Shown here: piece by piece, positions 1,901-51,862 of the stretch
How the letters are laid out: each line of letters starts with the position of its first letter
Numbering within the stretch: position 1 is the first letter of the stretch
NCBI GenBank assembly: GCA_038106525.1
Contig: JAYOEC010000001.1
Span: 24,876 to 88,875 of the forward strand
Reading direction: 5' to 3'
From: Minisyncoccota bacterium
GTDB taxonomy: Bacteria; Patescibacteriota; Minisyncoccia; Phycocordibacterales; Phycocordibacteraceae
Length of the DNA: 64,000 bases
Notes under the pieces: generated by a model
Told to the model about the DNA's origin: nothing
Databases searched by the model: none
What the model saw: only the letters and a program-made list of their open reading frames with translations
Translations under genes and position numbers: made by a program

Positions 1901-3049
1901 CTATAGCAAAGCAAAGACTTTCTCGCGCATTTCACTTGCAATCGTTCCCCATTCATACTGACGAAGCGCAAGTGCACGGGCACGAGTTGTAACTTCATTG
2001 ATAATGTCAGGATTCGCCACAATGTCTAGAACCGCAGAAACAATATCCTCGGGGGCATCTGGCCGCACCACCCACCCGGTCCCGCGCAGACCATCCAAAC
2101 GGACATCGGTCAAAAAATCAGTAATCCCGCCCACCCCGGTGCCGATGACCGGTAGACCAGCGGCAAACGCCTCAATAAACGCGTTCCCCATTCCTTCGGA
2201 ACGCGAGGGACGGACAAAAATACTCGAACTTCGCAAAAGCTCTCCAAGAGCACGGTGCGGGATGTATCCAAGAAACTGAACACGATCAGCGACTTTAAGT
2301 AAAGACGCAAGCATCTTCAATTCTGACTCATCAGGACCAACCCCAGCAATGACGAGAGAAACGCCCTGAAGTGCAGGAAGCGCGCGAATAATCGTGTCGA
2401 TGCCATTTTTATGCACCAACCGCGATGCGGTGACTAGCCTGATCGCATCCGGCGGATGCGTCGGACCGACAAACAGTGATGCATCCACCCCATTCGGAAC
2501 AACGACTACCCGTTCAGCACCCATCGAACGGGCCCATGACGCCAGGTACTGCGAGATACACTGCACCACTGCGGCCTTTCGAAATGCAATGCGGAGCAAA
2601 AGATAGAAAGGAAGAATGTGTGGACGAAGAAATACATGACGGTACGAATCCCCTTCTTGAAGAGTAATCGAAAACGGTAGCACCACACCAAGCATCCTCA
2701 AAAGCAGTATCGGAAAGGTCATATATGCCATCATCGCCCACAGCGCATCGAAAGGTCGTTCGGTATGCGCGGCGAATGCAGCAAGTGCAGCTCGCGGTAC
2801 AAATAACACCTTATCAACATACCGATCACCAAGCCCTACCCGTCGCACGGTAACCGATCCGATTTGCTCAACTGGTGCATCAGCCACACGGCGGCGCATG
2901 GTAATCATTTCGAAGTGGTATGCGCTCTTCGGCAGTCGGTCAGTAATCTCCTTAAGTGCAACCTCGGCACCGCCAACATCGGGGAAGTATGAGAGAGAAA
3001 AAATAAGAACCCGCTTTGCTGCAGGAGCGACTTTTGATGCCGATGTCAT
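1901..3049 (-). CDS. Glycosyltransferase family 1/4 (GT-B)
   Basis: RSEGMGNAFIEAFAAGLPVIGTGVGGITDFL... GT4 signature; N-terminus MTSASKVAPAAKRVLIFSLSYFPDVGGAEV. Confidence 0.8.
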   Translation of the reverse strand: MTSASKVAPAAKRVLIFSLSYFPDVGGAEVALKEITDRLPKSAYHFEMITMRRRVADAPVEQIGSVTVRRVGLGDRYVDKVLFVPRAALAAFAAHTERPFDALWAMMAYMTFPILLLRMLGVVLPFSITLQEGDSYRHVFLRPHILPFYLLLRIAFRKAAVVQCISQYLASWARSMGAERVVVVPNGVDASLFVGPTHPPDAIRLVTASRLVHKNGIDTIIRALPALQGVSLVIAGVGPDESELKMLASLLKVADRVQFLGYIPHRALGELLRSSSIFVRPSRSEGMGNAFIEAFAAGLPVIGTGVGGITDFLTDVRLDGLRGTGWVVRPDAPEDIVSAVLDIVANPDIINEVTTRARALALRQYEWGTIASEMREKVFALL

Positions 3050-3648
3050 TGTGGTATGTCCTCTACTATCTCATACTCGGACCCGGTACGATTCGGTACA
3101 CTCCTCAGCACCAGAAAGACGCAAGCCGAAAGGGCCGCAAGCAGTCCGGCCCAGAGAAACGAGAGCGACGGTCCCTGCAAAGGTCCCTGCCCTTCTGTCG
3201 CAACCGCCGCAAGAAGAAGTGCCTTCTCGTTACCTCCACTCTTCGGCTTCATGCCCTGATATCGAATCTGAGCAACAGTTGCCCCAGAGCGGTCTCTCAA
3301 CTCTAAAAGCTCTCCGGAATTTGAAAGAGAAAATGTGCTATCGAAAACTACTTCCGTCGAGTTTGGATGTTCGCTCAAAAAGGTCGCTGCGTCGGCAGCA
3401 ATAATCGCACTCGCGCCTGGAGCAAGTTCGGAACTGCCCAATGCAGTAATGCGATGGACACTACCTCCTTCAAAAAGCCTGAGGTCGGTAACAATAACAG
3501 GAACCGGAGATGTATTGAGGATTCGGACCCACTCACGGTTGTGGTCGCTGCCGTCCGGGTTGTACTCAATATGCGCAAACGACATCGCACTTGCTGTAAG
3601 AGGCATGAGAAGTGCGAATGTACTGTTACGCAGGAATCGGGGCAACAT
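3046..3648 (-). CDS. Lamin-tail-domain (LTD) protein with signal peptide and C-terminal TM anchor
   Basis: Start re-assigned to MLPRFLRNSTFALLMPLTASAMSFA (signal-peptide-like). LTD-like core FAHIEYNPDGSDHNREWVRILNTSPVPVIVTDLRLFEGG...SNSGELLELRDRSGATVAQIRY. Hydrophobic C-terminal helix LSFLWAGLLAALSACVFLVL. Confidence 0.65.
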   Translation of the reverse strand: MLPRFLRNSTFALLMPLTASAMSFAHIEYNPDGSDHNREWVRILNTSPVPVIVTDLRLFEGGSVHRITALGSSELAPGASAIIAADAATFLSEHPNSTEVVFDSTFSLSNSGELLELRDRSGATVAQIRYQGMKPKSGGNEKALLLAAVATEGQGPLQGPSLSFLWAGLLAALSACVFLVLRSVPNRTGSEYEIVEDIPQ

Positions 3649-5062
3649 ACATAAGGTCGCGCAGCTCACGCTCAGGAACTTCTTTTGGACTTTGTGATGG
3701 TGCGCCAGAAGCTTGGGGTGATGCAGCAGGAGGAGCGGTTGGAGGCCGCGGCTGTTTTTCCTCGCGAGGAACCGACGCCTGAGGCGGCGGTGCTTGTCCA
3801 GCCTTCTTTGCGAACATAGAACGAAATGCATCTGAAAATCCGGGCCCTCCAGATGCCGCCGGCGGCGCAGGCCGAGATCGCTCGGAACGGAATGATTCGT
3901 CAACCTCCGTGCGCGGTGTTGCATACTCGCGCCTCGATGTGAGGGCAATATCCTGCGGCGAGATCACCGTCCGCTCCGGAAGCTGCAGTGCCGATGCAAT
4001 AAATGGTTTTGAGCGGATGCCGTCGATCATCAGAGACACGGCGCACTCTCCGGGCTCAAACTGCTCGAGCTCAGCTTCCGTAAGATACGGATACACCACA
4101 CTGCCAGCCAACTTGAGATCAGCAGGGTGCGGCTGGAACGAAATGATTGATCCTGAGCGCGCAATCGCCTGCTCGCGGATTGGGAGATCGCCTTCTCGAT
4201 ACGCAGTGTCGGCAATCTGCACAGCAATGCTGCGGTCACTCAGCATCCGTTCGACATCAACCACACTAAGATACCTCAGACAATCGTGCAGGTACAATGC
4301 GTGGGGGCCACTCGCGGCTGCTGCAACTCGCGCTGCATATACTCCGAGCCTGACGAGCGGCGTAATTCGAGTAGGAAAGATCCTAATCCTCGAAACATCA
4401 AGAATGATACTGCGCCCAGCGCGAAGCGAGTCAAACGAAAATTTTCCGGATCGCTGCCCGATAAGATTTCGGACCATGGTGTCCTTGGCAAGGTATCGTC
4501 CAGTATCGGCAATAATGTTTGCGGCATCAGCATCCTCAGTTACCAGAGCAGAAAAATCGCGGTCGCTGTCCTTAAGATCGGACCGGAATCCTGCATCAGT
4601 CACAACCGAGTGCAGCATGAGCGGGGTTGTGTGGGGATTTTCCATCGTATAGGTGGCAGCAGCTGAGACGAGCGGACCCTCAGGAACACCATAGAGGGAC
4701 GCGAGAAGTTCGCGATATAATTCGCGACCACGCGCAGTAGTGCGAAAATCTCCTGCAACATCCCACGAAAACGGATACTCGGCATCCGCAGCATCAAGGT
4801 ATATGACTCGTTCTTCCGCTCCGCTTGGGAGTCGCTCAAGGATAAGTTGTGTAAGCACTCCGGTAGCATCAACAATAACCGTACCGATGCCCCGCTCAAT
4901 ATCCTGAAGCGCCATGCGCGCAAGCATGTGCGCGCGGCCGGATCCGACTTTCCCAGATACCAAGAGATGTTGCAACCGATCAGCATCCCGTATCCCGAAC
5001 GGAGTTACTCGTCCTTTAAATGAGGTTGCTGCAAGGTAGGTGATGCGTGAACCCCAATCCAT
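3626..5062 (-). CDS. HerA/FtsK-superfamily (DUF87/AAA_10-like) P-loop NTPase with a degenerate Walker A and a Pro/Ala-rich low-complexity C-terminal tail
   Basis: RLQHLLVSGKVGSGRAHMLARMALQDIERGIGTVIVDATGVL resembles the h-l-i-G-x-T-G-S-G-K-S...iDpkGe pattern of HerA/TraD/FtsK ATPases, but reads GSGRA (K to R, S/T to A). Walker-B-like RSIILDVSR. C-terminal tail PAPPAASGGPG...PPPQASVPREEKQPRPPTAPPAASPQASGAPSQSP. Confidence 0.6.
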   Translation of the reverse strand: MDWGSRITYLAATSFKGRVTPFGIRDADRLQHLLVSGKVGSGRAHMLARMALQDIERGIGTVIVDATGVLTQLILERLPSGAEERVIYLDAADAEYPFSWDVAGDFRTTARGRELYRELLASLYGVPEGPLVSAAATYTMENPHTTPLMLHSVVTDAGFRSDLKDSDRDFSALVTEDADAANIIADTGRYLAKDTMVRNLIGQRSGKFSFDSLRAGRSIILDVSRIRIFPTRITPLVRLGVYAARVAAAASGPHALYLHDCLRYLSVVDVERMLSDRSIAVQIADTAYREGDLPIREQAIARSGSIISFQPHPADLKLAGSVVYPYLTEAELEQFEPGECAVSLMIDGIRSKPFIASALQLPERTVISPQDIALTSRREYATPRTEVDESFRSERSRPAPPAASGGPGFSDAFRSMFAKKAGQAPPPQASVPREEKQPRPPTAPPAASPQASGAPSQSPKEVPERELRDLMYVAPIPA

Positions 5063-6552: not shown

Positions 6553-7251
6553 CTAGCAAGCGCTCAGAACCACGACAAACTCGCCCCGAACGGGGATATC
6601 GTGTCCAATTCGTTCAGAAAGCTCTCTCACGGAACCAACCGCAACCTGCTCGTATAGCTTCGTCAGCTCCCTTGCAATAACTGCGTGCCGATCGGGAGCC
6701 TTGTCTACAAGTTCCAAAAAAAGTTTCTGAATCCGGTGCGGAGATTCGTAGCACACCAGTGCATAGCCACTCGCGAGTGCCTGATCAAGCTTCTTTTGCC
6801 TCCCCTTCTTATGCGGCAAAAACCCGACAAAGAGAAATTCTGAAAATGGTAGACCTGAAACCGAAAGCGCAGCGGTCAGTGCAGACGGTCCCGGGATGGG
6901 AACAATTGCGCCCTCGCCGCACCGCTCGCGCACCAGCTGCACCAACAGTCCACCAGGATCAGAAATACCCGGCGTCCCCGCGTCAGTAACATATGCAACT
7001 GACTTCCCTGACGCAACCAGCATTGCAACTCGCTCAAATGCCGCGCGCGGCGACCGCGCGCGAAGTGACAGTAGCGGCTTCTTAATCGCATACCGCGCGA
7101 GGAGTTTTGCGGTTACTCGAGTATCCTCTGCCACTACAGAGTCGACTTCCTTCAAAACTTCAAGCGCGCGGTTAGTAATATCCCCGAGGTTGCCAATCGG
7201 GGTAGCGAGGACGAACAACACATTGCCCTTCATACCAGTACTTAACCACAC
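6553..7251 (-). CDS. rsmI: 16S rRNA (cytidine1402-2'-O)-methyltransferase RsmI
   Basis: NVLFVLATPIGNLGDITNRALEVLKEVDSVVAEDTRVTAKLL... tetrapyrrole-methylase-fold RsmI signature; 232 aa. Confidence 0.85.
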   Translation of the reverse strand: MWLSTGMKGNVLFVLATPIGNLGDITNRALEVLKEVDSVVAEDTRVTAKLLARYAIKKPLLSLRARSPRAAFERVAMLVASGKSVAYVTDAGTPGISDPGGLLVQLVRERCGEGAIVPIPGPSALTAALSVSGLPFSEFLFVGFLPHKKGRQKKLDQALASGYALVCYESPHRIQKLFLELVDKAPDRHAVIARELTKLYEQVAVGSVRELSERIGHDIPVRGEFVVVLSAC

Positions 7252-7285: not shown

Positions 7286-8698
7286 ATGCAAAGAGTCCAC
7301 TGCATCGGAATTGCAGGCATGGGTATGAGCGCTATTGCTGTACTGCTCAAAGAGGCCGGATACCATGTTACCGGATCGGACGAGGGTCTGTACCCGCCTG
7401 CGAGCGAGTACCTGCGCGAATCCGGGATTACTGTATTTGAAGGATACACGCCGCAGCATATCCCCGATGATACTGACTGGTTCATCATCGGCAGAAATGC
7501 GAAACTTGATCCAAGTACCAATGCCGAGGTGCGCGCCGCACTCGAGAGCGGGAAGCCGGTGCGGACCTTCCCCGAAGTGCTCGGTGAGCTTGGAAAAAAA
7601 TCACGCGTGCTCGTGGTCGCAGGGAGCTACGGAAAATCAACCAGTACCACACTCATCGCATGGTGCCTAGCCAGCGCAGGAAAAGATCCTTCGTATTTCA
7701 TAGGAGCTTTCCCGTTCGACCTCCCAAGAACCGCACGGCTCGGATCTGGAAATTTTTTCGTCATGGAGGGCGACGAGTACCCAACCTCCCATCAGGACCC
7801 GCGGTCAAAATTTTTGCACCTCGGCGCGCACGATGTACTGCTCACTGGAGCAGTACACGACCATGTAAATGTCTTTCCGACCGCGGACGACTACGAACGC
7901 GCATTTGTACCACTCATTGCAGGTCTGCCTGAGCAGGGGGTTATCGTCGCTGCGCGCGGAGAGGAAACGGAGCGGATACTTGCGCATGCCGGAAGGTCAG
8001 CAGTTATGTACGGGATTGGCGCATCTTCCGCTGGCTATGCTGCCACAGATATCCGCTTTGCTGAGCGAAGCTCCTTTGTTCTCAGAAAAGATGGCGCTGC
8101 TCTCGGAACACTTGAGACGGTCCTCCTCGGATCGCATAATATTGAAAACATCGTCGGAGCGGCGGCGATGCTGCTTGAGACTGGCGCACTGAGTTTTGAC
8201 GAAATAAGCACCGCAGTCGCCACATGCACCGGCGTCCGCCGCCGCCTTGATCTTTTGACTCCTGATTCGTCCGTACGCACCTATGAGGGGTTCGGTTCAT
8301 CGTATGAAAAAGCACGCGCCGCGATCAAAGCAATGAGGCTGCACTTCCCTGAGCGACGATTGGTAATTATATTTGAACCGCACACCTTCAGTTGGAGGAA
8401 TCGTAACTCCATACACTGGTACGATACGGTCTTTGCAGAAGCGAGCCGCGTGCTGGTATACGAACCCGCGAGACAAGGAAGCGAGACGCACGCGCAGCTG
8501 AATCAGGCAGAGATTGTTAATCGACTTCATCTTGCCGGAGTTCGTGCAGAGGCGTTGGATGAAGCTGCAGGAAATGCGCATATCCTTCAAAGCCTCGAAC
8601 CAGGAGATGTCGCGCTTATCTTAAGCTCCGGTAACTTAGGAGGGATTCTTGACACACTCCCAGCTGCCATCACTGCAGCATTTCCAAAATCCGCATGA
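7286..8698 (+). CDS. mpl: UDP-N-acetylmuramate:L-alanyl-gamma-D-glutamyl-meso-diaminopimelate ligase (Mpl-type Mur ligase)
   Basis: True start MQRVHCIGIAGMGMSAIAVLLKEAGYHVTGSD at 7286; the track's 5' extension overlaps rsmI on the opposite strand. Mpl-specific blocks: YPPASEYLRESGI, FFVMEGDEYPTSHQDPRSKF (vs E. coli Mpl FFVIEADEYDCAFFDKRSKF), GSHNIENIVGAAAM, VRRRLDLL, IFEPHTFSW, ILSSGNLGGI. Confidence 0.8.
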   Translation: MQRVHCIGIAGMGMSAIAVLLKEAGYHVTGSDEGLYPPASEYLRESGITVFEGYTPQHIPDDTDWFIIGRNAKLDPSTNAEVRAALESGKPVRTFPEVLGELGKKSRVLVVAGSYGKSTSTTLIAWCLASAGKDPSYFIGAFPFDLPRTARLGSGNFFVMEGDEYPTSHQDPRSKFLHLGAHDVLLTGAVHDHVNVFPTADDYERAFVPLIAGLPEQGVIVAARGEETERILAHAGRSAVMYGIGASSAGYAATDIRFAERSSFVLRKDGAALGTLETVLLGSHNIENIVGAAAMLLETGALSFDEISTAVATCTGVRRRLDLLTPDSSVRTYEGFGSSYEKARAAIKAMRLHFPERRLVIIFEPHTFSWRNRNSIHWYDTVFAEASRVLVYEPARQGSETHAQLNQAEIVNRLHLAGVRAEALDEAAGNAHILQSLEPGDVALILSSGNLGGILDTLPAAITAAFPKSA

Positions 8699-9366
8699 AA
8701 GTAATCCGCGAGGAATTCGGAGAGGACTATGGTAACTACCGCTTTGGATACTGCGTGTGGTGCCACCTGGAGCAGGATGATGAGCTTCGAGATATCTATG
8801 CAGGCGGATTTCTCCCATACTCAAAAAACCCAGAAGAGAAGAACACATTTTATATGGCACGGAGTGCTCGCGTCACGCTTAGCCAATTTGAGCCGTCGAG
8901 CGAAAATAGGAGGATTGCAAAAAGGTTCGATGGACAGGCCAGGCGCGAACTGCTTACTCCGGCAGAAGCAAAGACGGACCCGGAGTGCATCCCGATGGTG
9001 CTTGAGTACTTTTCAAAAAAACACGGCGCTATTGTCATGCCGGAAAATCGGCTTATCGGAATACTTGACACACCGCTCCCACTCAGAGTCGTACGGTATG
9101 TGGGCGACGCAGTGCTTGGGTATACATTTGAAATCGTAGCGGAGGGGGTGATGCACTTTTGGTATTCAGCGTACGATATGCGGTACGCGCAAAAATCTCT
9201 AGGCGCATGGCTTATGCTTGACTCAATTCGAAATGCAAAATCAGAGGGCAGAGCGCACGCGTATCTTGGCACCGTCTACGGCGAAAAGGGAAAATACAAA
9301 ATGAACTTTCAGCCGCTCGAATACTGGAACGGCACTGAATGGATTGGTGGGCGCGAGAGGACTTGA
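8695..9366 (+). CDS. ATE/Bpt-family aminoacyl-tRNA--protein transferase (arginyl/leucyl-tRNA protein transferase-like)
   Basis: N-terminal Cys motif FGYCVWC (ATE_N-like CGYC). C-terminal block HFWYSAYDMRYAQKSLGAWLMLDSIRNAKSEGRAHAYLGTVYGEKGKYKMNFQPLEYWNGTEW aligns with the Bpt/ATE_C pattern YSFYDP..SLG..L..I..AK..G...YLGY...C.KM.YK.NF.P.E...G.W. Start ATG overlaps the mpl stop (ATGA). Confidence 0.6.
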   Translation: MKVIREEFGEDYGNYRFGYCVWCHLEQDDELRDIYAGGFLPYSKNPEEKNTFYMARSARVTLSQFEPSSENRRIAKRFDGQARRELLTPAEAKTDPECIPMVLEYFSKKHGAIVMPENRLIGILDTPLPLRVVRYVGDAVLGYTFEIVAEGVMHFWYSAYDMRYAQKSLGAWLMLDSIRNAKSEGRAHAYLGTVYGEKGKYKMNFQPLEYWNGTEWIGGRERT

Positions 9367-9430
9367 ACCTCCACCCCCTTGCGGGGACTACGACCTGAAC
9401 GTAGCGTGTCTGCCATTTCACCACGCGCCC
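9345..9430 (-). tRNA. tRNA-Leu(CAG), long variable arm, CCA encoded
   Basis: Reverse complement: GGGCGCGTGGTGAAATGGCAGACACGCTACGTTCAGGTCGTAGTCCCCGCAAGGGGGTGGAGGTTCAAGTCCTCTCGCGCCCACCA. 7-bp acceptor, anticodon loop TTCAGGT (CAG), T-loop GGTTCAAGTCC. Its 3' end overlaps the last ~20 nt of the convergent Bpt-like CDS. Confidence 0.8.
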
Positions 9431-9470
9431 ATGTGGCTTAGTGCCTAGGATACTATAACAAAAAACCGAG

Positions 9471-9543
9471 TGCGCACTCTAGGATTCGAACCTAGGACCG
9501 CTCGAGTATCAGTCGAGTGCTCTACCAACTGAGCTAAGTGCGC
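9471..9543 (-). tRNA. tRNA-Ile(GAT), CCA not encoded
   Basis: Reverse complement: GCGCACTTAGCTCAGTTGGTAGAGCACTCGACTGATACTCGAGCGGTCCTAGGTTCGAATCCTAGAGTGCGCA. Anticodon loop CTGATAC (GAT). Immediately downstream of the 16S 3' end, as in rrn spacers. Confidence 0.8.
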
Positions 9544-9756
9544 ATGCTCATCCTATATACCAAAAAAAGCATTGCCCGTCGAGCGCCAAAACGCGACGAG
9601 CATCCAGATCCAAAGAGCTTTTCTTTCTTCTGCCCCGATCCACCCCCGTTTCGTGTATCGGGGTACCGAGCGCCAGTTTAGAGTTGTGCGCCAATACTCT
9701 GTGTCGTTAGACAATCGACCGGTAAGTCATCCCAAATTGTGGGACGACCTTTCCGT

Positions 9757-11215
<1,459 letters not shown>

Positions 11216-21204: not shown

Positions 21205-21320
21205 CTCTGTTCTGGCGACTAGCTACTCTCCCCTTGCGAGTACCATCGCTACTACCGCGCTTAACTGCCAAGTTCGGAATGGGATTGGGTGTGACCACGG
21301 CGTCGAATCACCAGAACAGA
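21205..21320 (-). rRNA. rrf: 5S ribosomal RNA (compact, ~105-115 nt)
   Basis: Reverse complement CTGGTGATTCGACGCCGTGGTCACACCCAATCCCATTCCGAACTTGGCAGTTAAGCGCGGTAGTAGCGATGGTACTCGCAAGGGGAGAGTAGCTAGTCGCCAG. Flanked by 16-nt inverted repeats (21190-21205 and 21312-21327), a likely processing stem. Confidence 0.8.
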
Positions 21321-21401
21321 GCACTCGGCTCTGCGTACACTGACTCTTGCATCACAGCAACAACACCGAGCGGTACAATTGACTCGCTCATGGCGTTCAT
21401 A

Positions 21402-24398
<2,997 letters not shown>

Positions 24399-46495: not shown

Positions 46496-47080
46496 CTACA
46501 GGCCGGAGGCGCTCATACCGCGGTGTATGTGGCGGACTAACGCTCCGGTGCGCGCACCGGCGCGCATCAAAAGTGCGGCAGTAAGCGGAGAAGCGATGAA
46601 GTCGTGCTCGTCGTCGGATGGCGCAACATATCCAAGTGCCGCAAGGGTCCGTAGCACAACAAGGTATTCAAGCGTACGGATATCTTTGGCCGAAACATCG
46701 TGAAGGGCACCACAGTACTCCCAGAGCCGCCCAAAGAGCTCGTCATTCTTGCCTTCCCCACGGACAAATTGTCGTACAAACGAAATAACTCTGGCGAACG
46801 ATTTCTGAACTTCCTCCTGTTGCACTGCAAAATACTCGTTTACCGTCCGCACAGCGCCCGTAACGCGCCACTGATCTCTTCCTCGAACCAGCGAGTAGGT
46901 GCCGCGCGTCCCCGGTACCAGATGTGCCCGGAGCTTTGAGCGTTCCTCGCGAGCAGAAGTGGCGAGTGCAGTTACCAACCCCAACTCTTCGGTAAAGAGC
47001 ATAATCCTGAGCGATCCCTCGCCCGCCTGACGGCGGCTCAGTACAAGTCCGCGTGTATGCACCTCACGCTTTGTGAACAT
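46496..47080 (-). CDS. recO: DNA repair protein RecO (short form lacking Zn finger)
   Basis: MFTKREVHTRGLVLSRRQAGEGSLRIMLFTEELGLVTALATSAREERSKLRAHLVPGTRGTYSLV... N-terminal OB-fold pattern of RecO. Start chosen to avoid overlap with ileS. Confidence 0.6.
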   Translation of the reverse strand: MFTKREVHTRGLVLSRRQAGEGSLRIMLFTEELGLVTALATSAREERSKLRAHLVPGTRGTYSLVRGRDQWRVTGAVRTVNEYFAVQQEEVQKSFARVISFVRQFVRGEGKNDELFGRLWEYCGALHDVSAKDIRTLEYLVVLRTLAALGYVAPSDDEHDFIASPLTAALLMRAGARTGALVRHIHRGMSASGL

Positions 47081-50000
47081 TGAAATCTCCTTCACGAACT
47101 TCACTGATTGATGCTGCCCTCTCTAGACTCTCGAAGTGCTGCTGAGCAAATACCAACCGCTCGGCCGGAACGGACAGCACCGCACGGTCTTTTGGATTAA
47201 GCCCTGCAATTTTCCGCGCCTCCTGCACTTCACGAATAAGCTCGCGCACTTCTCCCTCCTCCCTAAGCGCATCGGTCAAGGTGGTATCAAGTTCAACCAT
47301 TTCGGGTATTCCCTCTTGCACCACCACCTCCTTTACATTCAATTCATCGCGGATCAGGTCGAGCAGGTCGTTTTTATTCGCAAGTGACGGCGCATTAATT
47401 TTGAGCCTAGAGAGCGGCTGACGAACCTTGATGCCCTCTTTCTGTCTTGCCTCGAGCGCCAAGGACACCAACTCGCGCACCTTTTGCATATCTAATACAA
47501 GTTCAGATGAGTTAAGGCGCAAAAGACTCTTCCAATCGAATATCTTGCGAGCAACAGTCGGCCAGGCTGCAAGGTGCACGGATACCGGATCCTGTTCATC
47601 TCGAACGCCGCGGTACACAGCCTCAGCAAGAAACGGAGCAAACGGTGCTAAGAGGCGTGCTGAAACATGCAATGTCTTTCGCAGCGTCTGTAGTGCAGCG
47701 CGGTCGCCGTCCCGAACCCGATCACGGATGCGGCGCACATACCATTGCGAAATATCTTCGAAAAGGGCTGCAAGCGCTCGTGTCGCTGCGGTGAGATTAT
47801 ATGCGTCGAGCGCCGAGGTCACCTCAACTATAACTTGTTCCGTCCGTCGCTGCATCCACTGATCGATACTCATCACACGCATATCAGGCCCGCCTTCGTT
47901 CTTAAAAATCTCATAAAACTTTGCGCTGTTATCAAACCAACCAAGAGCTCGAGCCGCCTCACGGACGGTCTTTTCGTCAAAATTCTTTGGATCCCCGGCA
48001 TCATTGACACTAAACATCCAAAATCTCAGTGCATCCGCTCCCCACTGTTCAATAGCATCCCAAGGGTTTACCACATTGCCGCGACTCTTCGACATTTTTT
48101 TTCCTTCCGCATCAAGCAGATGACCCAGTGATACTACATGGTTATATGGAGCCCCCTTTCCCATGAGAACACCGACCGCAAGAAGTGTATAAAACCACCC
48201 GCGTGTCTGATCAATTGCTTCAGCAATGTAGTCCGCAGGATATGGTGACTCGGTGCCGAATGGCATTCCTCCAGAATCAAACCACACATCGACCACATCC
48301 GGAACGCGATGGAGTTCTTTGCCTGTCGGGGACTCGAGCACCACTGAATCGATAAATGGGCGGTGTAGGTCAAGCTCGTAATCAGCATTGTGCGGCAACC
48401 GAACAAACTGGAACTCGCGCACCTCGCCAGTGGTGTAGTATTCCTCGCGATCCTTCATGGCGACCGTCCCAGCAACATCAGCCCCTCTGGCAATTGCCTC
48501 GGCTAACCAAACGGCGTACTCGTGCGTCACGATCAAAATAGTCTCTCCATGATGTTTCTCCTCAAGTTCGTAGAGGAACGCGCCAATCCGGCGTCGCATG
48601 TCCATCAAATTTTCTCCGCCAGGGGGCGTCTTGTAAAACCGTTCTTGGTACGAAGAAAAGAAATGATGGTACGCCTCGACCGACTTTCCATCAAATTCTC
48701 CCGTATCTATTTCTTGAATTCGATCATCAAATCGTATTTCTGATTTCGGAAATCCGCATGCGTCGGCAACGATCTCTGCAGTCTCTCTGGTACGGATGAA
48801 TGGGGAGGCATAGATCGCATCAAATCTCTTCCATTTCAGAGTCTGTGCGGACTTTGCAACCTGTGCCCTGCCGGAGTCTGTCAGATGATTTTCGTCACCC
48901 GCATGAGAACTGACCACGGACCCAACATTGCTCATTGCCTGCCCATGCCGCATCAAAAAGTAAGTGTTGCCGCTCTTTTTACTATAGCGTTTCAGCTCAT
49001 CAACGGAACCGATGACCATGTGCTCACCCTCTCCTTCCCACACCGGGAGTGGTGTTGCCCAGTATCGTTCGCGAGAAATTGCCCAGTCCTTTATGCCTCG
49101 CAGCCACTCGCCCATGCGCCCATCACGCAAGTGTGCGGGAACCCAAGCAACCGTCGCATTCTCCCGCTGCAGAGTATCAGCCAATTCGGACATACGGATG
49201 TACCAAGAATCGCGCGCATAGTAGATGAGTGCAGTTTTACATCTCCAGCAAAATGGGTAGGAATGTGCATGCTTCCCTTTTGAGAACAAGTGTCCGCGGT
49301 GCGCGAGGTCCTTAATGATGTCGACCGCAACACCCTCATCCCGTACAAATCTGCCAGCCAAAAATCCGACCCCATCCATAAAACGCCCGGACGGCTCGAC
49401 CACATGTACACGGGGTAAATCGTTTTTTTGACCAAGCAAAAAATCATCCGCCCCATACATGACCGCGGTATGCACCACTCCCGTGCCATCTTCAGTAGTT
49501 ACAAAATCAGCCTCGTACACCTTAAAGGCACTCGCAAACCGCTCGCGCTCACTTTCAGGAGCCAAATCCCGTGCAAATGGGTACAGAGGTTCATATGTCT
49601 GACCAACGAGCTGCTCGCCGGACAAGGATTCAGCTCCTTCCGCAGAAAGGCCGAGGGACGATGCCCGATCTTTAGCAACAATCAGGGTTTCTCCATCATT
49701 GCGGACCTTTAGGTACTGAATGCCACCACCAACCGCGAGAGCAACATTCCCTGGTAATGTCCATGGAGTGGTGGTCCACGCGAGAATAAAGGTCGGCTGC
49801 TGCTCGCCGACCTGTTCCGGAGTGCGAAGGCGAAACTTTGCAACAACCGCAAGGTCGCTTACTTCCTCATACCCTTGTGCAACCTCATGTGATGAAAGAG
49901 CGGTGCCACATCGAGGACACCATGGAACCACCTTGTAATCCTTATACAACCGCCGATCTCGGTGCACCTTGGCAAGAATGCCCCAGAGCCGTTCCATGTA

Positions 50001-50468
50001 TGTTGGAGTGTAAGTGTAGTATGCATCCGCCTGATCAACCCAATACCCAATGCGTTCAGTAAAACGCCACCACTCGTCTATGTACCGTAAGACACTCTCC
50101 CGGCACTTCTGATTAAAGGCTGCGACACCGTACGCCTCAATCTCCGGCTTTCCTGAAAATCCTAGCTGCTTCTCAACCTCGAGCTCCACCGGAAGTCCGT
50201 GCGTATCCCACCCTGCACGGCGCTTCACACGATACCCCTGCATTGTCTTATACCGAGGAATTGCATCCTTAAACGCTCGCGCTTCGAGGTGGTGCAAGCC
50301 AGGTTTACCATTTGCTGTAGGCGGCCCCTCATAAAATACAAACTCGCCCTTCGGGGCTGGCTTCTCCAACGACCGTTCAAAAATCTTGTGTTCTTTCCAA
50401 AATGCAAGCACCTCCTCCTCGCGGAGTGCGGCATCCGACTTTTGACGCTGCTGCGCATCGTCGTGCAT
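47064..50468 (-). CDS. ileS: Isoleucyl-tRNA synthetase carrying an internal histidine-phosphatase (PGAM-like) domain insertion
   Basis: YEGPPTANGKPGLHHLEARAFKDAIPRYKTMQG (HIGH region), WCPRCGTALSSHEVAQGY, CP1 editing domain TTPWTLPGNVALAV, DVWFDSG, KMSKSRGNVV. Between WATPLPVW (aa ~471) and DVWFDSG (aa ~727) sits ~190 aa with LMRHGQAMSN and ILIVTHEYAVWL. Confidence 0.9.
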   Translation of the reverse strand: MHDDAQQRQKSDAALREEEVLAFWKEHKIFERSLEKPAPKGEFVFYEGPPTANGKPGLHHLEARAFKDAIPRYKTMQGYRVKRRAGWDTHGLPVELEVEKQLGFSGKPEIEAYGVAAFNQKCRESVLRYIDEWWRFTERIGYWVDQADAYYTYTPTYMERLWGILAKVHRDRRLYKDYKVVPWCPRCGTALSSHEVAQGYEEVSDLAVVAKFRLRTPEQVGEQQPTFILAWTTTPWTLPGNVALAVGGGIQYLKVRNDGETLIVAKDRASSLGLSAEGAESLSGEQLVGQTYEPLYPFARDLAPESERERFASAFKVYEADFVTTEDGTGVVHTAVMYGADDFLLGQKNDLPRVHVVEPSGRFMDGVGFLAGRFVRDEGVAVDIIKDLAHRGHLFSKGKHAHSYPFCWRCKTALIYYARDSWYIRMSELADTLQRENATVAWVPAHLRDGRMGEWLRGIKDWAISRERYWATPLPVWEGEGEHMVIGSVDELKRYSKKSGNTYFLMRHGQAMSNVGSVVSSHAGDENHLTDSGRAQVAKSAQTLKWKRFDAIYASPFIRTRETAEIVADACGFPKSEIRFDDRIQEIDTGEFDGKSVEAYHHFFSSYQERFYKTPPGGENLMDMRRRIGAFLYELEEKHHGETILIVTHEYAVWLAEAIARGADVAGTVAMKDREEYYTTGEVREFQFVRLPHNADYELDLHRPFIDSVVLESPTGKELHRVPDVVDVWFDSGGMPFGTESPYPADYIAEAIDQTRGWFYTLLAVGVLMGKGAPYNHVVSLGHLLDAEGKKMSKSRGNVVNPWDAIEQWGADALRFWMFSVNDAGDPKNFDEKTVREAARALGWFDNSAKFYEIFKNEGGPDMRVMSIDQWMQRRTEQVIVEVTSALDAYNLTAATRALAALFEDISQWYVRRIRDRVRDGDRAALQTLRKTLHVSARLLAPFAPFLAEAVYRGVRDEQDPVSVHLAAWPTVARKIFDWKSLLRLNSSELVLDMQKVRELVSLALEARQKEGIKVRQPLSRLKINAPSLANKNDLLDLIRDELNVKEVVVQEGIPEMVELDTTLTDALREEGEVRELIREVQEARKIAGLNPKDRAVLSVPAERLVFAQQHFESLERAASISEVREGDFNVHKA

Positions 50469-50494: not shown

Positions 50495-51862
50495 TCAAGG
50501 CGCAGCGGTCTTTGAATGGGACACGAGTAGGTACGCTCCAGCACCAGCAGTACCCAAAAGCCCAGCCATAAAAACGAAAACCCAATACGGGAGCGGCCTC
50601 CTTGGTGAGGCAGTTGTTGTTGCCTCAACAATGTCGCGAGAACCATCCGATGACCCGGCTGACGCACCAAGCACCAACCCACTCGCGGCCGCCATCGATT
50701 GTTGCTCTTGTTCTGCTCTCGGGATGCTTTTAGCTGAGAGCATGAGCTGCGCCGTATAGGTCACTGCGGGCATGCCATTTGGGTACTGAAGCAGTACTGT
50801 GCTCGGAACACTTGGGCGCACCCCTGTTACCGCACCGGCAAATGCAACAAGGGTCTGAGGGCGCACTATGGTGCGTGGAGGAAAGACGAATCGTGATCCG
50901 TCCGCACTCAAAATCCATCCACCAAGGTCAACCTCGTGAGAGGAGTGGTTCTTAATTTCTACCAGTTCTGGAGACACCGTACCGAACGAAAGATCCGCGG
51001 GCACCGCTGCAACCAGCACTCTGTCGGCAGCACTATATGCACCACTTGCAGCATCAGCAACCACCGTGTAACTCCCTGGATAGAGAAAAGTGTGCGCTAC
51101 CGATTGTCCTTCGGCGCTTGTTCCATCACCAAAACTCCACACCACGCGAGCACTCTCAATCCGCTCGCCGGCGAGGCCATAGACTACCGAGGAGAATATG
51201 AGCGGAGCCCCAACAATCGCGGTCCGATCATCGCCAGCTGTGATGCGGATCTTCGGGTCGACAGGAAACGAGCTGGTGCTTGGACTGCTCGACGCCGAAA
51301 CAGACGATGGTGTTGATGTCTCAGGAACCTCCGTTTCCTCTGAAGCAGCACCGGGCCCGCCACCGGGTGTTGGTTGAAGTGCTACCCAGCTTGAGCCGTT
51401 TTTCTGAAGTGATGTGCCGTCTCCTGCTCCGCCCATCCCTGGTGTATAGGTCACCGAGTCGATATCTGCTCCGGCGTTGTCACGCACAGCAATGCTTTCG
51501 CCATTCGTATTATTAAGCCCGCTGGTAAACGCAACATCGAAAAGAGTCCCTGAAAATCCAGGATAATCAGCAAGAAATGTAGTCGGGTCGTCTGCAATGA
51601 CTACATATGTTCCGGATGGAATAGTCTCGGCACCCGCAACAAGATTGAGTGAGTGATTAACGCCTCCCTCAAAAAGCTTCCAGTCGGAAAGAACTATCGG
51701 CTCGCCCGAATTCATAACCTCTATCCACTCGTGTTTCGTATCGGTACCGCTTGGATCATACATAATCTCCGAAATAAAAACTGCCGCAGAGGCGGCAGTG
51801 GGAGCTACAAAAACGGTCAGGAAGACGAGGAGCGGGATCGAGGCCCGATACATGCCTACCAC
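50495..51862 (-). CDS. Surface protein with two lamin-tail domains, signal peptide and C-terminal TM anchor
   Basis: Signal MVGMYRASIPLLVFLTVFVAPTAASAAVFISEIMYDPSGTDTKHEWIEVMNSGEPIVLSDWKLFEGG (LTD1). Second LTD VSPELVEIKNHSSHEVDLGGWILSADGSRFVFPPRTIVRPQTLVAFAG. C-terminal PYWVFVFMAGLLGTAGAGAYLLV. Confidence 0.7.
   Translation of the reverse strand: MVGMYRASIPLLVFLTVFVAPTAASAAVFISEIMYDPSGTDTKHEWIEVMNSGEPIVLSDWKLFEGGVNHSLNLVAGAETIPSGTYVVIADDPTTFLADYPGFSGTLFDVAFTSGLNNTNGESIAVRDNAGADIDSVTYTPGMGGAGDGTSLQKNGSSWVALQPTPGGGPGAASEETEVPETSTPSSVSASSSPSTSSFPVDPKIRITAGDDRTAIVGAPLIFSSVVYGLAGERIESARVVWSFGDGTSAEGQSVAHTFLYPGSYTVVADAASGAYSAADRVLVAAVPADLSFGTVSPELVEIKNHSSHEVDLGGWILSADGSRFVFPPRTIVRPQTLVAFAGAVTGVRPSVPSTVLLQYPNGMPAVTYTAQLMLSAKSIPRAEQEQQSMAAASGLVLGASAGSSDGSRDIVEATTTASPRRPLPYWVFVFMAGLLGTAGAGAYLLVSHSKTAAP

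Follow-up and report, generated by a model that had tools for sequence, protein, structure and literature searches.

To our knowledge, aminoacyl-tRNA transferases of the ATE1/Bpt type are known only as enzymes that tag the N-termini of proteins in N-degron pathways, and tRNA-dependent chemistry at the cell wall is known only from the Fem/MurM family. Here we analyze two adjacent genes, one for a Mur ligase and one for a protein of 223 amino acids (in the following called the transferase), which lie in a stretch of 64,000 nucleotides from the Minisyncoccota bacterium assembly GCA_038106525.1 (contig JAYOEC010000001.1, positions 24,876 to 88,875 of the forward strand). This whole stretch is referred to as the window. 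Across the class Paceibacteria the two genes are conserved as an operon. The gene pair suggests, but does not prove, that an enzyme of the N-end-rule type has been re-used for cell-wall building blocks.

On the side of the ligase the closest described enzymes are MurC and Mpl, which act on UDP-linked N-acetylmuramic acid (UDP-MurNAc). The hallmarks of Mpl include the insertion (S/T)AFFDKRSK following a unique tyrosine (DEY), which is absent from MurC to MurF (Das et al. 2011, PMC3060825). On the side of the transferase, Bpt and ATE1 are closest by homology, and FemX, MurM and FemAB could be compared by analogy of the proposed function. The acceptor of W. viridescens FemX is soluble UDP-MurNAc-peptide (PMC2175331).

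Conservation of the gene pair

The original prediction described a murein-peptide ligase gene whose stop codon overlaps the start of the second gene, with a convergent tRNA-Leu(CAG) gene reaching into the 3′ end of the latter, and all of these features were found in their predicted positions (Table 1). As start of the ligase we took the first methionine that matches the N-terminus of the homologues (MQRVHCIGIAG...). The TGA codon of the ligase gene (8696-8698) overlaps the ATG codon of the transferase gene (8695-8697), and this ATGA arrangement is consistent with translational coupling. Since the 223-amino acid protein has 243 relatives at E<=1e-3 and the ligase has thousands, both reading frames are real genes. 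The transferase family is of modest size with 127 clusters at E<=1e-30 and 828 clusters at E<=1e-3 when clustered at 50%.

Using the transferase as seed we collected 80 species-level loci from the GTDB representatives, 66 of which have enough upstream sequence to be informative. In 55 of these 66 loci the gene immediately upstream, in the same orientation, is the ligase gene, so that the conservation of the pair in related genomes, proposed as a check, is confirmed; the remaining loci include one with the reverse gene order and one with the ligase about 1 kb upstream. The pair is present in all three long contigs that we inspected, with an overlap of 4 nt in two of them (L001 and L005) and a gap of 1 nt in the third (L003), and in most relatives the gap, as estimated from tblastn coordinates, is about -9 to +2 nt. 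With 83-86% the adjacency of ligase and transferase is the best conserved in the neighborhood; RsmI is found upstream in 36 of the 48 loci with at least 5 kb of upstream sequence.

In the converse set, seeded with the ligase, the transferase follows downstream in 23 of 62 informative loci and in 19 of the 28 RsmI-positive ones, i.e., in the Paceibacteria context. The ligases without this partner are scattered over the ligase tree. Since only about two thirds of the Paceibacteria-type ligases carry it, the transferase behaves as an accessory and lineage-variable partner, which nearly always travels with the ligase, while the ligase is independent of the transferase. The idea that the ligase is tailored to the transferase had to be given up: about one third of the Paceibacteria-type loci as well as the Hyphomicrobiales have this subfamily but no transferase, and the partnerless Hyphomicrobiales members carry identical subfamily motifs.

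The transferase: fold and motifs

Residues 140-210 of the 223-amino acid protein match the Pfam family ATE_C (PF04377) with 31.0 bits, above the gathering cut-off of 25, and Acetyltransf_6 with 34.2 bits. No match to ATE_N (PF04376), FemAB (PF02388) or Leu_Phe_trans (PF03588) was obtained at E<=1. Seven NCBIfam models of Bpt ("arginyltransferase") match as well, the best one with 49.4 bits against a cut-off of 267; the cut-offs of these models range from 170 to 358 and the protein stays far below each. In a tblastn search residues 21-216 matched an annotated arginyltransferase of S. meliloti (E 3e-4), and hhalign of a family alignment of 24 sequences (alignment A1) against three Bpt sequences gave a probability of 98.6% and an E value of 1e-15 over residues 45-218. 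Together with the ATE_C score this supports the proposed ATE/Bpt fold. PDB sequence searches with the single sequence and with the family profile returned no match, and the link to ATE1 is visible only through the Pfam and NCBIfam profiles, the Bpt bridge alignment and the predicted structure.

The AlphaFold2 model computed on alignment A1 has a predicted local distance difference test value (pLDDT) of 90.9 and a predicted template modeling score (pTM) of 0.88. In the predicted structure the whole-protein fold is ATE1-like with an N-domain and a GNAT domain. Structure comparison gave matches restricted to the GNAT core for MprF (14.9), FemX (13.2), L-PGS (13.2), Sbb17 (12.1) and the L/F-transferase (9.8), in agreement with the Foldseek result. 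The Fem proteins differ in having tandem GNAT domains, whereas the transferase has a single GNAT domain and an ATE-type N-domain, and only the core of about 170 residues aligns. As judged from the model, the protein is a whole-length minimal ATE/Bpt-fold aminoacyl-tRNA-transferase-like protein. It is predicted to be soluble without a membrane segment, and with 223-252 amino acids the members of its family are similar in size to Bpt (259-292 amino acids).

Bpt and the transferase family have the motifs RxR(I/V)xxxxF, S/TxxRR, Y..Y/F...RHG..M, SLGxW/Y and YLG and the lysine of the YK motif in common. Within the family the motifs RSARV...F..SENRR, Y..YF..(R/K)HG..M, H.W.S.YD, SLG.WL..D and YLGTVYG.K..YK are invariant, and the lysine of the final motif (K202) aligns with the YK lysine of Bpt. 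Because the invariant motifs and this lysine are kept, the catalytic scaffold for aminoacyl-tRNA transfer looks intact.

Other parts of Bpt are missing. In the bridge alignment an eight-residue deletion falls exactly on the CxxCxxC motif of Bpt and the upstream cysteine (C.YL) is likewise absent, so that the cysteines of the Cys4 metal site (Cys23/26/95/96 in K. lactis Ate1 (KlAte1); C..CxxCxxC in Bpt) have no counterpart in the transferase. The original prediction had pointed to a CGYC-like cysteine motif at the N-terminus. The sequence FGYCVWC is indeed present in the window protein, but its cysteines C20 and C23 are not conserved and other family members show GYT, GYA or no cysteine at all. 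With the CxxCxxC region deleted, we ruled out this cysteine pair as an ATE_N-like metal site.

In the window protein the arginine-free sequence GFLPYSKNPE stands where Bpt has GFRRS; FRRS and NPEE are paired by hhalign, and there is no conserved arginine. Going by ATE1 sequences, Arg80 of KlAte1 is presumably part of the G(F/W)RRS motif. This residue is essential for arginylation and is located in a pocket thought to recognize the acidic N-terminal residue (PMC9351520). As far as these alignments tell, the elements by which the N-degron enzymes recognize their acceptor are gone from the transferase. The differences to Bpt and ATE1 comprise the missing ATE_N match, the Cys4 site and the GFRRS arginines as well as the partner, which is a Mur ligase and not the Clp machinery.

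These losses bear on the question whether the protein is an ordinary N-degron Bpt orthologue, which would transfer leucine to N-terminal aspartate or glutamate for degradation by Clp and whose place behind the ligase would merely reflect inherited gene order. The near-full-length homology to annotated Bpt in the tblastn and hhalign searches and the similar size fit such an enzyme, and so do the synteny of the whole region in the clade and the frequent occurrence of the ligase without transferase. The absence of the GFRRS arginines and of all cysteine ligands conserved in Bpt and ATE1 (PMC9351520) and the low scores against the Bpt equivalogs speak against it. In addition, the stop/start overlap and the adjacency to the ligase exceed what is seen with any other neighbor, and those transferase genes which are not linked to a ligase stand beside sugar-activation or lipopolysaccharide (LPS) genes and not beside protease genes. 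A search of the window and about 160 related loci for the N-end-rule partners ClpS, ClpA and Aat gave no match in the window and the GTDB loci (L009-L088) and a single ClpA match among the metagenome loci (L097-L176). We therefore regard an ordinary N-degron function as distinctly improbable.

Some relatives of the transferase have additional parts. The 50% representative library contains a natural fusion protein of 809 amino acids (P0258) in which a transferase homologue (residues 1-219) is joined to an ATP-binding PPDK_N domain and a PEP-utilizer swivel domain. The distant members P0273, P0281 and P0372 (about 300 amino acids) have C-terminal hydrophobic stretches which by eye resemble membrane anchors and would hint at some relatives acting at the membrane.

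The ligase: relation to MurC and Mpl

The ligase has three domains, an N-domain for UDP binding, a middle domain of the P-loop ATPase type and a C-domain (Pfam Mur_ligase 59.9 bits, Mur_ligase_M 54.5 bits and, weakly, Mur_ligase_C 23.4 bits), and this three-domain Mur architecture is shared with Mpl. It aligns over the full length with the NCBIfam models murC (TIGR01082, 231.1 bits, cut-off 335.1) and mpl (equivalog TIGR01081, 202.3 bits, cut-off 388.7) and is below the cut-off in both cases. Pairwise searches favor Mpl: with the window ligase, 172 bits are reached by E. coli Mpl and 106 bits by E. coli MurC; the median over 61 family members is 159 bits to E. coli Mpl and 111 bits to MurC, with the higher value for Mpl in 61 of 61 cases. 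The annotated Mpl genes of a plasmid and chromid collection score 161-173 bits and the annotated MurC genes 86-146 bits, and the JGI annotation of the family is Mpl. Compared with the solved structures the ligase scores 127-169 bits to MurC and 137 bits to Mpl, and E. coli Mpl scores 125-160 bits to MurC. By these values the ligase is about as distant from MurC and Mpl as E. coli Mpl is from MurC.

We then aligned the motifs of 13 family members with three Mpl and seven MurC sequences, covering five bacterial classes. At the site of the Mpl insertion the window ligase reads GDEYPTSHQDPRSKF; the length is as in Mpl and the tyrosine and RSKF are kept, the AFFD part is not conserved. The DEY tyrosine and the seven-residue insertion ending with RSKF are common to the ligase and Mpl and absent from all seven MurC sequences, and a one-residue insertion after the EP motif is also common to the subfamily and Mpl. 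The C-terminal motif S-x-G-x-x-GG is Mpl-like as well (LSSGNLGG compared with MSNGGFGG in Mpl). With MurC the ligase shares the glycine loop, GIAGMGMS, which corresponds to the MurC pattern GIGGxGMS and lacks the phenylalanine of the Mpl pattern GI(C/G)GTFM, and the histidine of the PH motif. Several positions differ from Mpl, to which the identity is about 28%, or from both enzymes. The motif DD(F/Y)(A/G)HHP, conserved in MurC and Mpl (DDFAHHP in Mpl), has become EGFGSSYEK in the subfamily, with FGSS in place of FAHH. The Mpl sequence EPRSNTM corresponds to EPHTFSW, where the glutamate, the proline and the extra residue are kept and the side chains differ, giving a MurC/Mpl hybrid. The asparagine of TN(I/L)xxDH ((T/N)N(I/L)xxDH in the comparison with Mpl), conserved across the aligned Mur ligases, is serine or glycine. 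Markers of the subfamily are EGDEYPxxxxDxxSKF, EGFGSSYEK, FEPHTFSWRN and (T/S)SGxLGG.

In a neighbor-joining (NJ) tree, i.e., a distance method with a small reference set (448 columns, 300 bootstraps, three Mpl, seven MurC, 13 subfamily members and MurD/E/F as outgroups), the subfamily groups with the Mpl clade with 85% bootstrap support and with MurC with 3%. The phylogenetic check suggested with the original prediction thus came out in favor of Mpl. The assignment as an Mpl-type ligase nevertheless stands only in part: the sequences EGDEY...RSKF, VRRRLDLL and EPHTFSW are present and both indels and the position in the tree agree with it, but the score below the mpl cut-off, the MurC-like glycine loop, the loss of FAHH and the hybrid character of EPHTFSW do not. 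From its sequence we place the ligase in a third lineage that is deeply separated from its sister Mpl; it is Mpl by affinity and not by membership. Ligation of a pre-formed tripeptide, which had been deduced for the ligase, is not implied by a protein with hybrid motifs that reaches 202 of the required 388.7 bits; it can be classified as a putative UDP-MurNAc-type amide ligase whose substrate is not readable from the sequence.

A metagenome scan with the ligase as seed revealed two populations. The first one has low to middle G+C content and RsmI upstream, which is the Paceibacteria context. In the second one (loci L101-L161, proteins P0391-P0463) the G+C content is 58-66%, and both RsmI and the transferase are missing. 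The closest named relatives of these high-G+C ligases belong to the Hyphomicrobiales (Methylobacteriaceae, Beijerinckiaceae), where some are annotated as Mpl; the Hyphomicrobiales ligases are about 50% identical to the window ligase and have all subfamily motifs. When 94 ligases were placed in a distance-based NJ tree together with the protein of the window and three Mpl sequences, a core clade of 22 high-G+C ligases (monophyly 52% bootstrap) came out nested in the Paceibacteria diversity, which hints, with weak support, at a transfer of the ligase from Paceibacteria to Alphaproteobacteria. Hyphomicrobiales presumably have an ordinary MurC of their own. If this is so, their copy of the ligase would have a role other than the housekeeping MurC step.

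Could the ligase be the housekeeping MurC equivalent of the lineage, adding L-alanine (L-Ala) to UDP-MurNAc, instead of a salvage enzyme? Such a role would be compatible with a FemX-like partner, and the pair would then be joined in a cell-wall operon for mere convenience. The higher score of the murC model (231 vs 202 bits), the MurC-like glycine loop and the PH histidine favor it, as do the wide occurrence of the subfamily in Paceibacteria, with the Hyphomicrobiales copies nested within it in the NJ tree, and the fact that neither the window nor any of the loci showed a further MurC-type gene. Also in favor, E. coli Mpl itself accepts L-Ala weakly. PaMpl accepts L-Ala at 0.7 min-1 (PMC3060825). 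In the core gene table of the Parcubacteria neither the names nor the COG numbers of murC and murD are listed (PMC4508563), but this is weak evidence because mraY is missing too. Against a MurC equivalent stands the L-Ala pocket, whose positions we inferred from the DDYGHHP and PHRYTR motifs. Tyr346, His348, His376, Arg377 and Arg380 of H. influenzae MurC correspond to Phe, Ser, His, Thr and Arg in the ligase, i.e., two of the five residues are kept and Tyr346, His348 and Arg377 are changed. Furthermore both Mpl-specific indels are present, and the Hyphomicrobiales, presumably next to their own MurC, keep the subfamily and its motifs. On balance we consider the MurC equivalent as possible but somewhat doubtful.

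Genomic neighborhood

A search for canonical MurC and MurD in the window and in related loci totalling about 1.5 Mb turned up only this ligase, one MurE and one Ddl, and the searchable literature had nothing specific on the two enzymes in these genomes. Enzymes which form D-glutamate (D-Glu) recur after the pair: a glutamate racemase in nine distinct loci and a class-IV D-amino-acid aminotransferase in six. Most Parcubacteria are reported to have a pentaglycine-bridge (Fem-type) protein, which the three C7867 genomes lack (Nelson and Stegen 2015, PMC4508563). These three genomes carry the ligase-transferase pair (L029, L030 and L042). The Fem-type protein and the pair may have a complementary distribution, an observation that is anecdotal but suggestive.

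Where the transferase is not linked to the ligase, other envelope-related genes are found. In locus L081 (4159-7693) its neighbors are a NanE-APH fusion, weakly AmgK-like with 64 bits, and a sugar-1-phosphate nucleotidyltransferase which is weakly MurU/GlmU-like; L086 also has the NanE-APH fusion and L048 (6617-8735) a nucleotidyltransferase. This suggests an amino-sugar activation cassette. Outside of the candidate phyla radiation (CPR), a transferase homologue with 40% identity on an Acidobacteriota chromosome of 5.1 Mb (CP070717.1; L071, 5955-8705) directly follows two genes, one resembling LPS heptosyltransferases and one for a heptose-7-phosphate kinase of the HldE type, and no Mur ligase is nearby. 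In another unlinked locus (L053, 1933-3060) a single-chain PheRS-like gene is located just upstream of the transferase; it scores 235 bits with mitochondrial-type pheS and 218 bits with the "PheS-related mystery ligase SrmL", below both cut-offs.

There are aminoacylated targets other than peptidoglycan: MprF aminoacylates a membrane lipid, and VlmA, Sbb17 and Sba18 act on small molecules. The transferase could in the same way modify a membrane lipid, a nucleotide sugar or surface glycan, or a small molecule, with the ligase as a mere neighbor. The unlinked copies beside sugar kinase/nucleotidyltransferase or LPS heptose genes, the anchor-like hydrophobic ends of P0273, P0281 and P0372 and the homologue fused to the PPDK_N/PEP-utilizer module are in line with such a target. 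The dominant partner in Paceibacteria by far, however, is the UDP-MurNAc-type ligase with its overlapping reading frame, the D-Glu-forming enzymes recur beside the pair, and the transferase of the window is predicted to be soluble. Therefore we think that a different target is unlikely.

The tRNA genes next to the transferase gene were analyzed as possible sources of the donor. In the window tRNA-Leu(CAG) is the last gene of a 16S - tRNA-Ile - tRNA-Leu unit, and the tail of this unit accounts for a convergent tRNA-Ile after the transferase in 12 of 92 loci and a convergent tRNA-Leu in 7 of 92. A co-directional tRNA-Ala(GGC) follows in four loci (L027, L036, L043 and L047) about 130-370 nt past the end of the match, which could be lineage synteny or a hint at the donor amino acid. 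In the same way tRNA-Gly(GCC) follows in L024 and tRNA-Phe(GAA) in L044. A dedicated donor tRNA was rejected: Ile(GAT), Leu(CAG), Ala(GGC), Gly and Phe occur in different lineages, and the Ile and Leu genes simply close the 16S unit.

The last 22 nt of the transferase reading frame overlap the tRNA-Leu(CAG) gene. In its terminal region (9300-9366) the window protein is without the C-terminal segment D..LK.L.R, which is present in 23 of 23 aligned homologues; about 10-15 codons have been lost at the 3′ end, and its final residues, GGRERT, are read from the strand antisense to the tRNA. Three relatives with the same neighbor (L073, L074 and L083) keep the longer C-terminus with the D..LK helix and overlap the tRNA by 0-1 nt. 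Because these three are not truncated and the window copy has lost the segment, the overlap is incidental, as the original prediction had allowed for, and we rejected it as a functional feature.

Table 1. Coordinates of the gene pair and of neighboring features in the window
Feature	Position	Strand	Basis
Mpl-like Mur ligase, 470 aa	7286..8698	+	ORF + Pfam + NCBIfam, motif alignment, NJ tree
Predicted minimal ATE/Bpt-fold aminoacyl-tRNA-transferase-like protein, 223 aa	8695..9366	+	
ATGA stop/start overlap of ligase and transferase genes	8695..8698	+	read in sequence
tRNA-Leu(CAG), convergent to transferase gene (context only)	9345..9430	-	ARAGORN + Rfam
RsmI-like TP_methylase, divergent upstream neighbor of ligase	6553..7251	-	Pfam TP_methylase 118 bits
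16S rRNA gene	9756-11214	-	
tRNA-Ile(GAT)	9470-9543	-	
23S - 5S rRNA unit	21210-24396	-	

The rest of the window consists of ordinary CPR housekeeping genes; neither Fem genes nor genes for Clp adaptors occur. The rRNA operon is divided, with 16S, tRNA-Ile(GAT) and tRNA-Leu(CAG) in one unit and 23S and 5S about 10 kb away; protein-coding genes for SecDF, FolD, glycosyltransferases and FtsW/RodA lie in between. A split rRNA operon is typical of the CPR and fits the names given to the closest homologues, which place the window in the Patescibacteria, class Paceibacteria, probably near Kaiserbacteria. On the minus strand at 47064-50468 the window encodes a class-I aminoacyl-tRNA synthetase of 1134 amino acids (Ile/Val/Leu type with an IleRS-type DUF5915 tail), in which a histidine-phosphatase domain (His_Phos_1, residues 504-664) is inserted between the halves of the catalytic domain. 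Lamin-tail-domain (LTD) proteins are encoded at 3046-5062 and 50495-51862, both on the minus strand. An open reading frame of 478 amino acids has no Pfam match, and its positional counterpart in L003 and L005 has signatures of a TrwB/TraG-type coupling ATPase. In many Paceibacteria the LTD/TraG-like block shows synteny with the ligase region.

Discussion

In the searchable literature we found no previous description of the pairing of an Mpl-like ligase with an ATE-like protein or of either subfamily. We propose that the pair is a cell-wall precursor operon for the tRNA-dependent tailoring of a peptidoglycan peptide or precursor and put the probability of this reading at roughly 40%. The ligase would use ATP to activate the lactyl carboxylate of UDP-MurNAc, to which it would join either an amino acid or a pre-formed peptide through the amino group. 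The transferase would move an amino acid from aminoacyl-tRNA to a free amino group of a peptidoglycan peptide, which may be a free peptide that is later attached by the ligase or the UDP-MurNAc-peptide that the ligase has made. It would then work like FemX or MurM and yet descend from the Bpt/ATE lineage.

The ATGA overlap, the adjacency in 55 of 66 loci, the relation of the ligase to Mpl, the lost N-degron motifs, the D-Glu and envelope genes in the neighborhood and the N-end-rule partners that were not found all support this tailoring function. A number of observations weigh against it. In 11 of the 66 loci the ligase is not directly upstream of the transferase and in nine there is no ligase within the flanks, and the transferase is absent from nine of the 28 ligases in Paceibacteria context and from all 22 high-G+C loci of the core clade. 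RsmI, a TraG-like ATPase (32 of the 48 loci with long upstream sequence) and DUF4015 are also syntenic in the clade, so that part of the conservation of the pair may be inherited gene order and not functional coupling. No tRNA identity recurs beside the transferase gene, and both the donor and the acceptor of the transferase are guesses. Finally, the one MurE found beside the ligase is of the meso-diaminopimelic acid (DAP) type, and DAP-type walls are usually without side chains built from tRNA.

A more far-reaching variant would be a tRNA-dependent route to the stem peptide. Here the transferase, a descendant of enzymes which aminoacylate Glu or Asp at N-termini, would build or repair the N-terminal part of the peptide by adding L-Ala or another residue from an aminoacyl-tRNA to free D-Glu, or to a salvaged peptide containing gamma-D-Glu, at the alpha-amino group, and the ligase would join the product to UDP-MurNAc, bypassing MurC (and MurD) partly or wholly. 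The D-Glu enzymes beside the pair, the remodelled acceptor pocket of the transferase and the tRNA-Ala(GGC) in four loci are consistent with such a bypass without demonstrating it. The same is true for the weak dipeptide activity of known Mpl (PMC3060825) and for the core table of the Parcubacteria in which murC and murD are not named (PMC4508563). About one third of the Paceibacteria-type ligases, however, have no adjacent transferase, and we consider the bypass a long shot.

If tRNA-dependent tailoring by the pair is true, aminoacyl-tRNA transferases would have been recruited to peptidoglycan synthesis a second time and independently, and the pair would give a first functional lead on the wall chemistry of the almost uncultured Paceibacteria. 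The ligase would add to MurC and Mpl a third, uncharacterized lineage of UDP-MurNAc ligases, one that Patescibacteria and Hyphomicrobiales have apparently exchanged. Should it be the sole MurC-type enzyme of these reduced episymbionts, it would bear on the question whether they synthesize their wall peptides or salvage them from their hosts.

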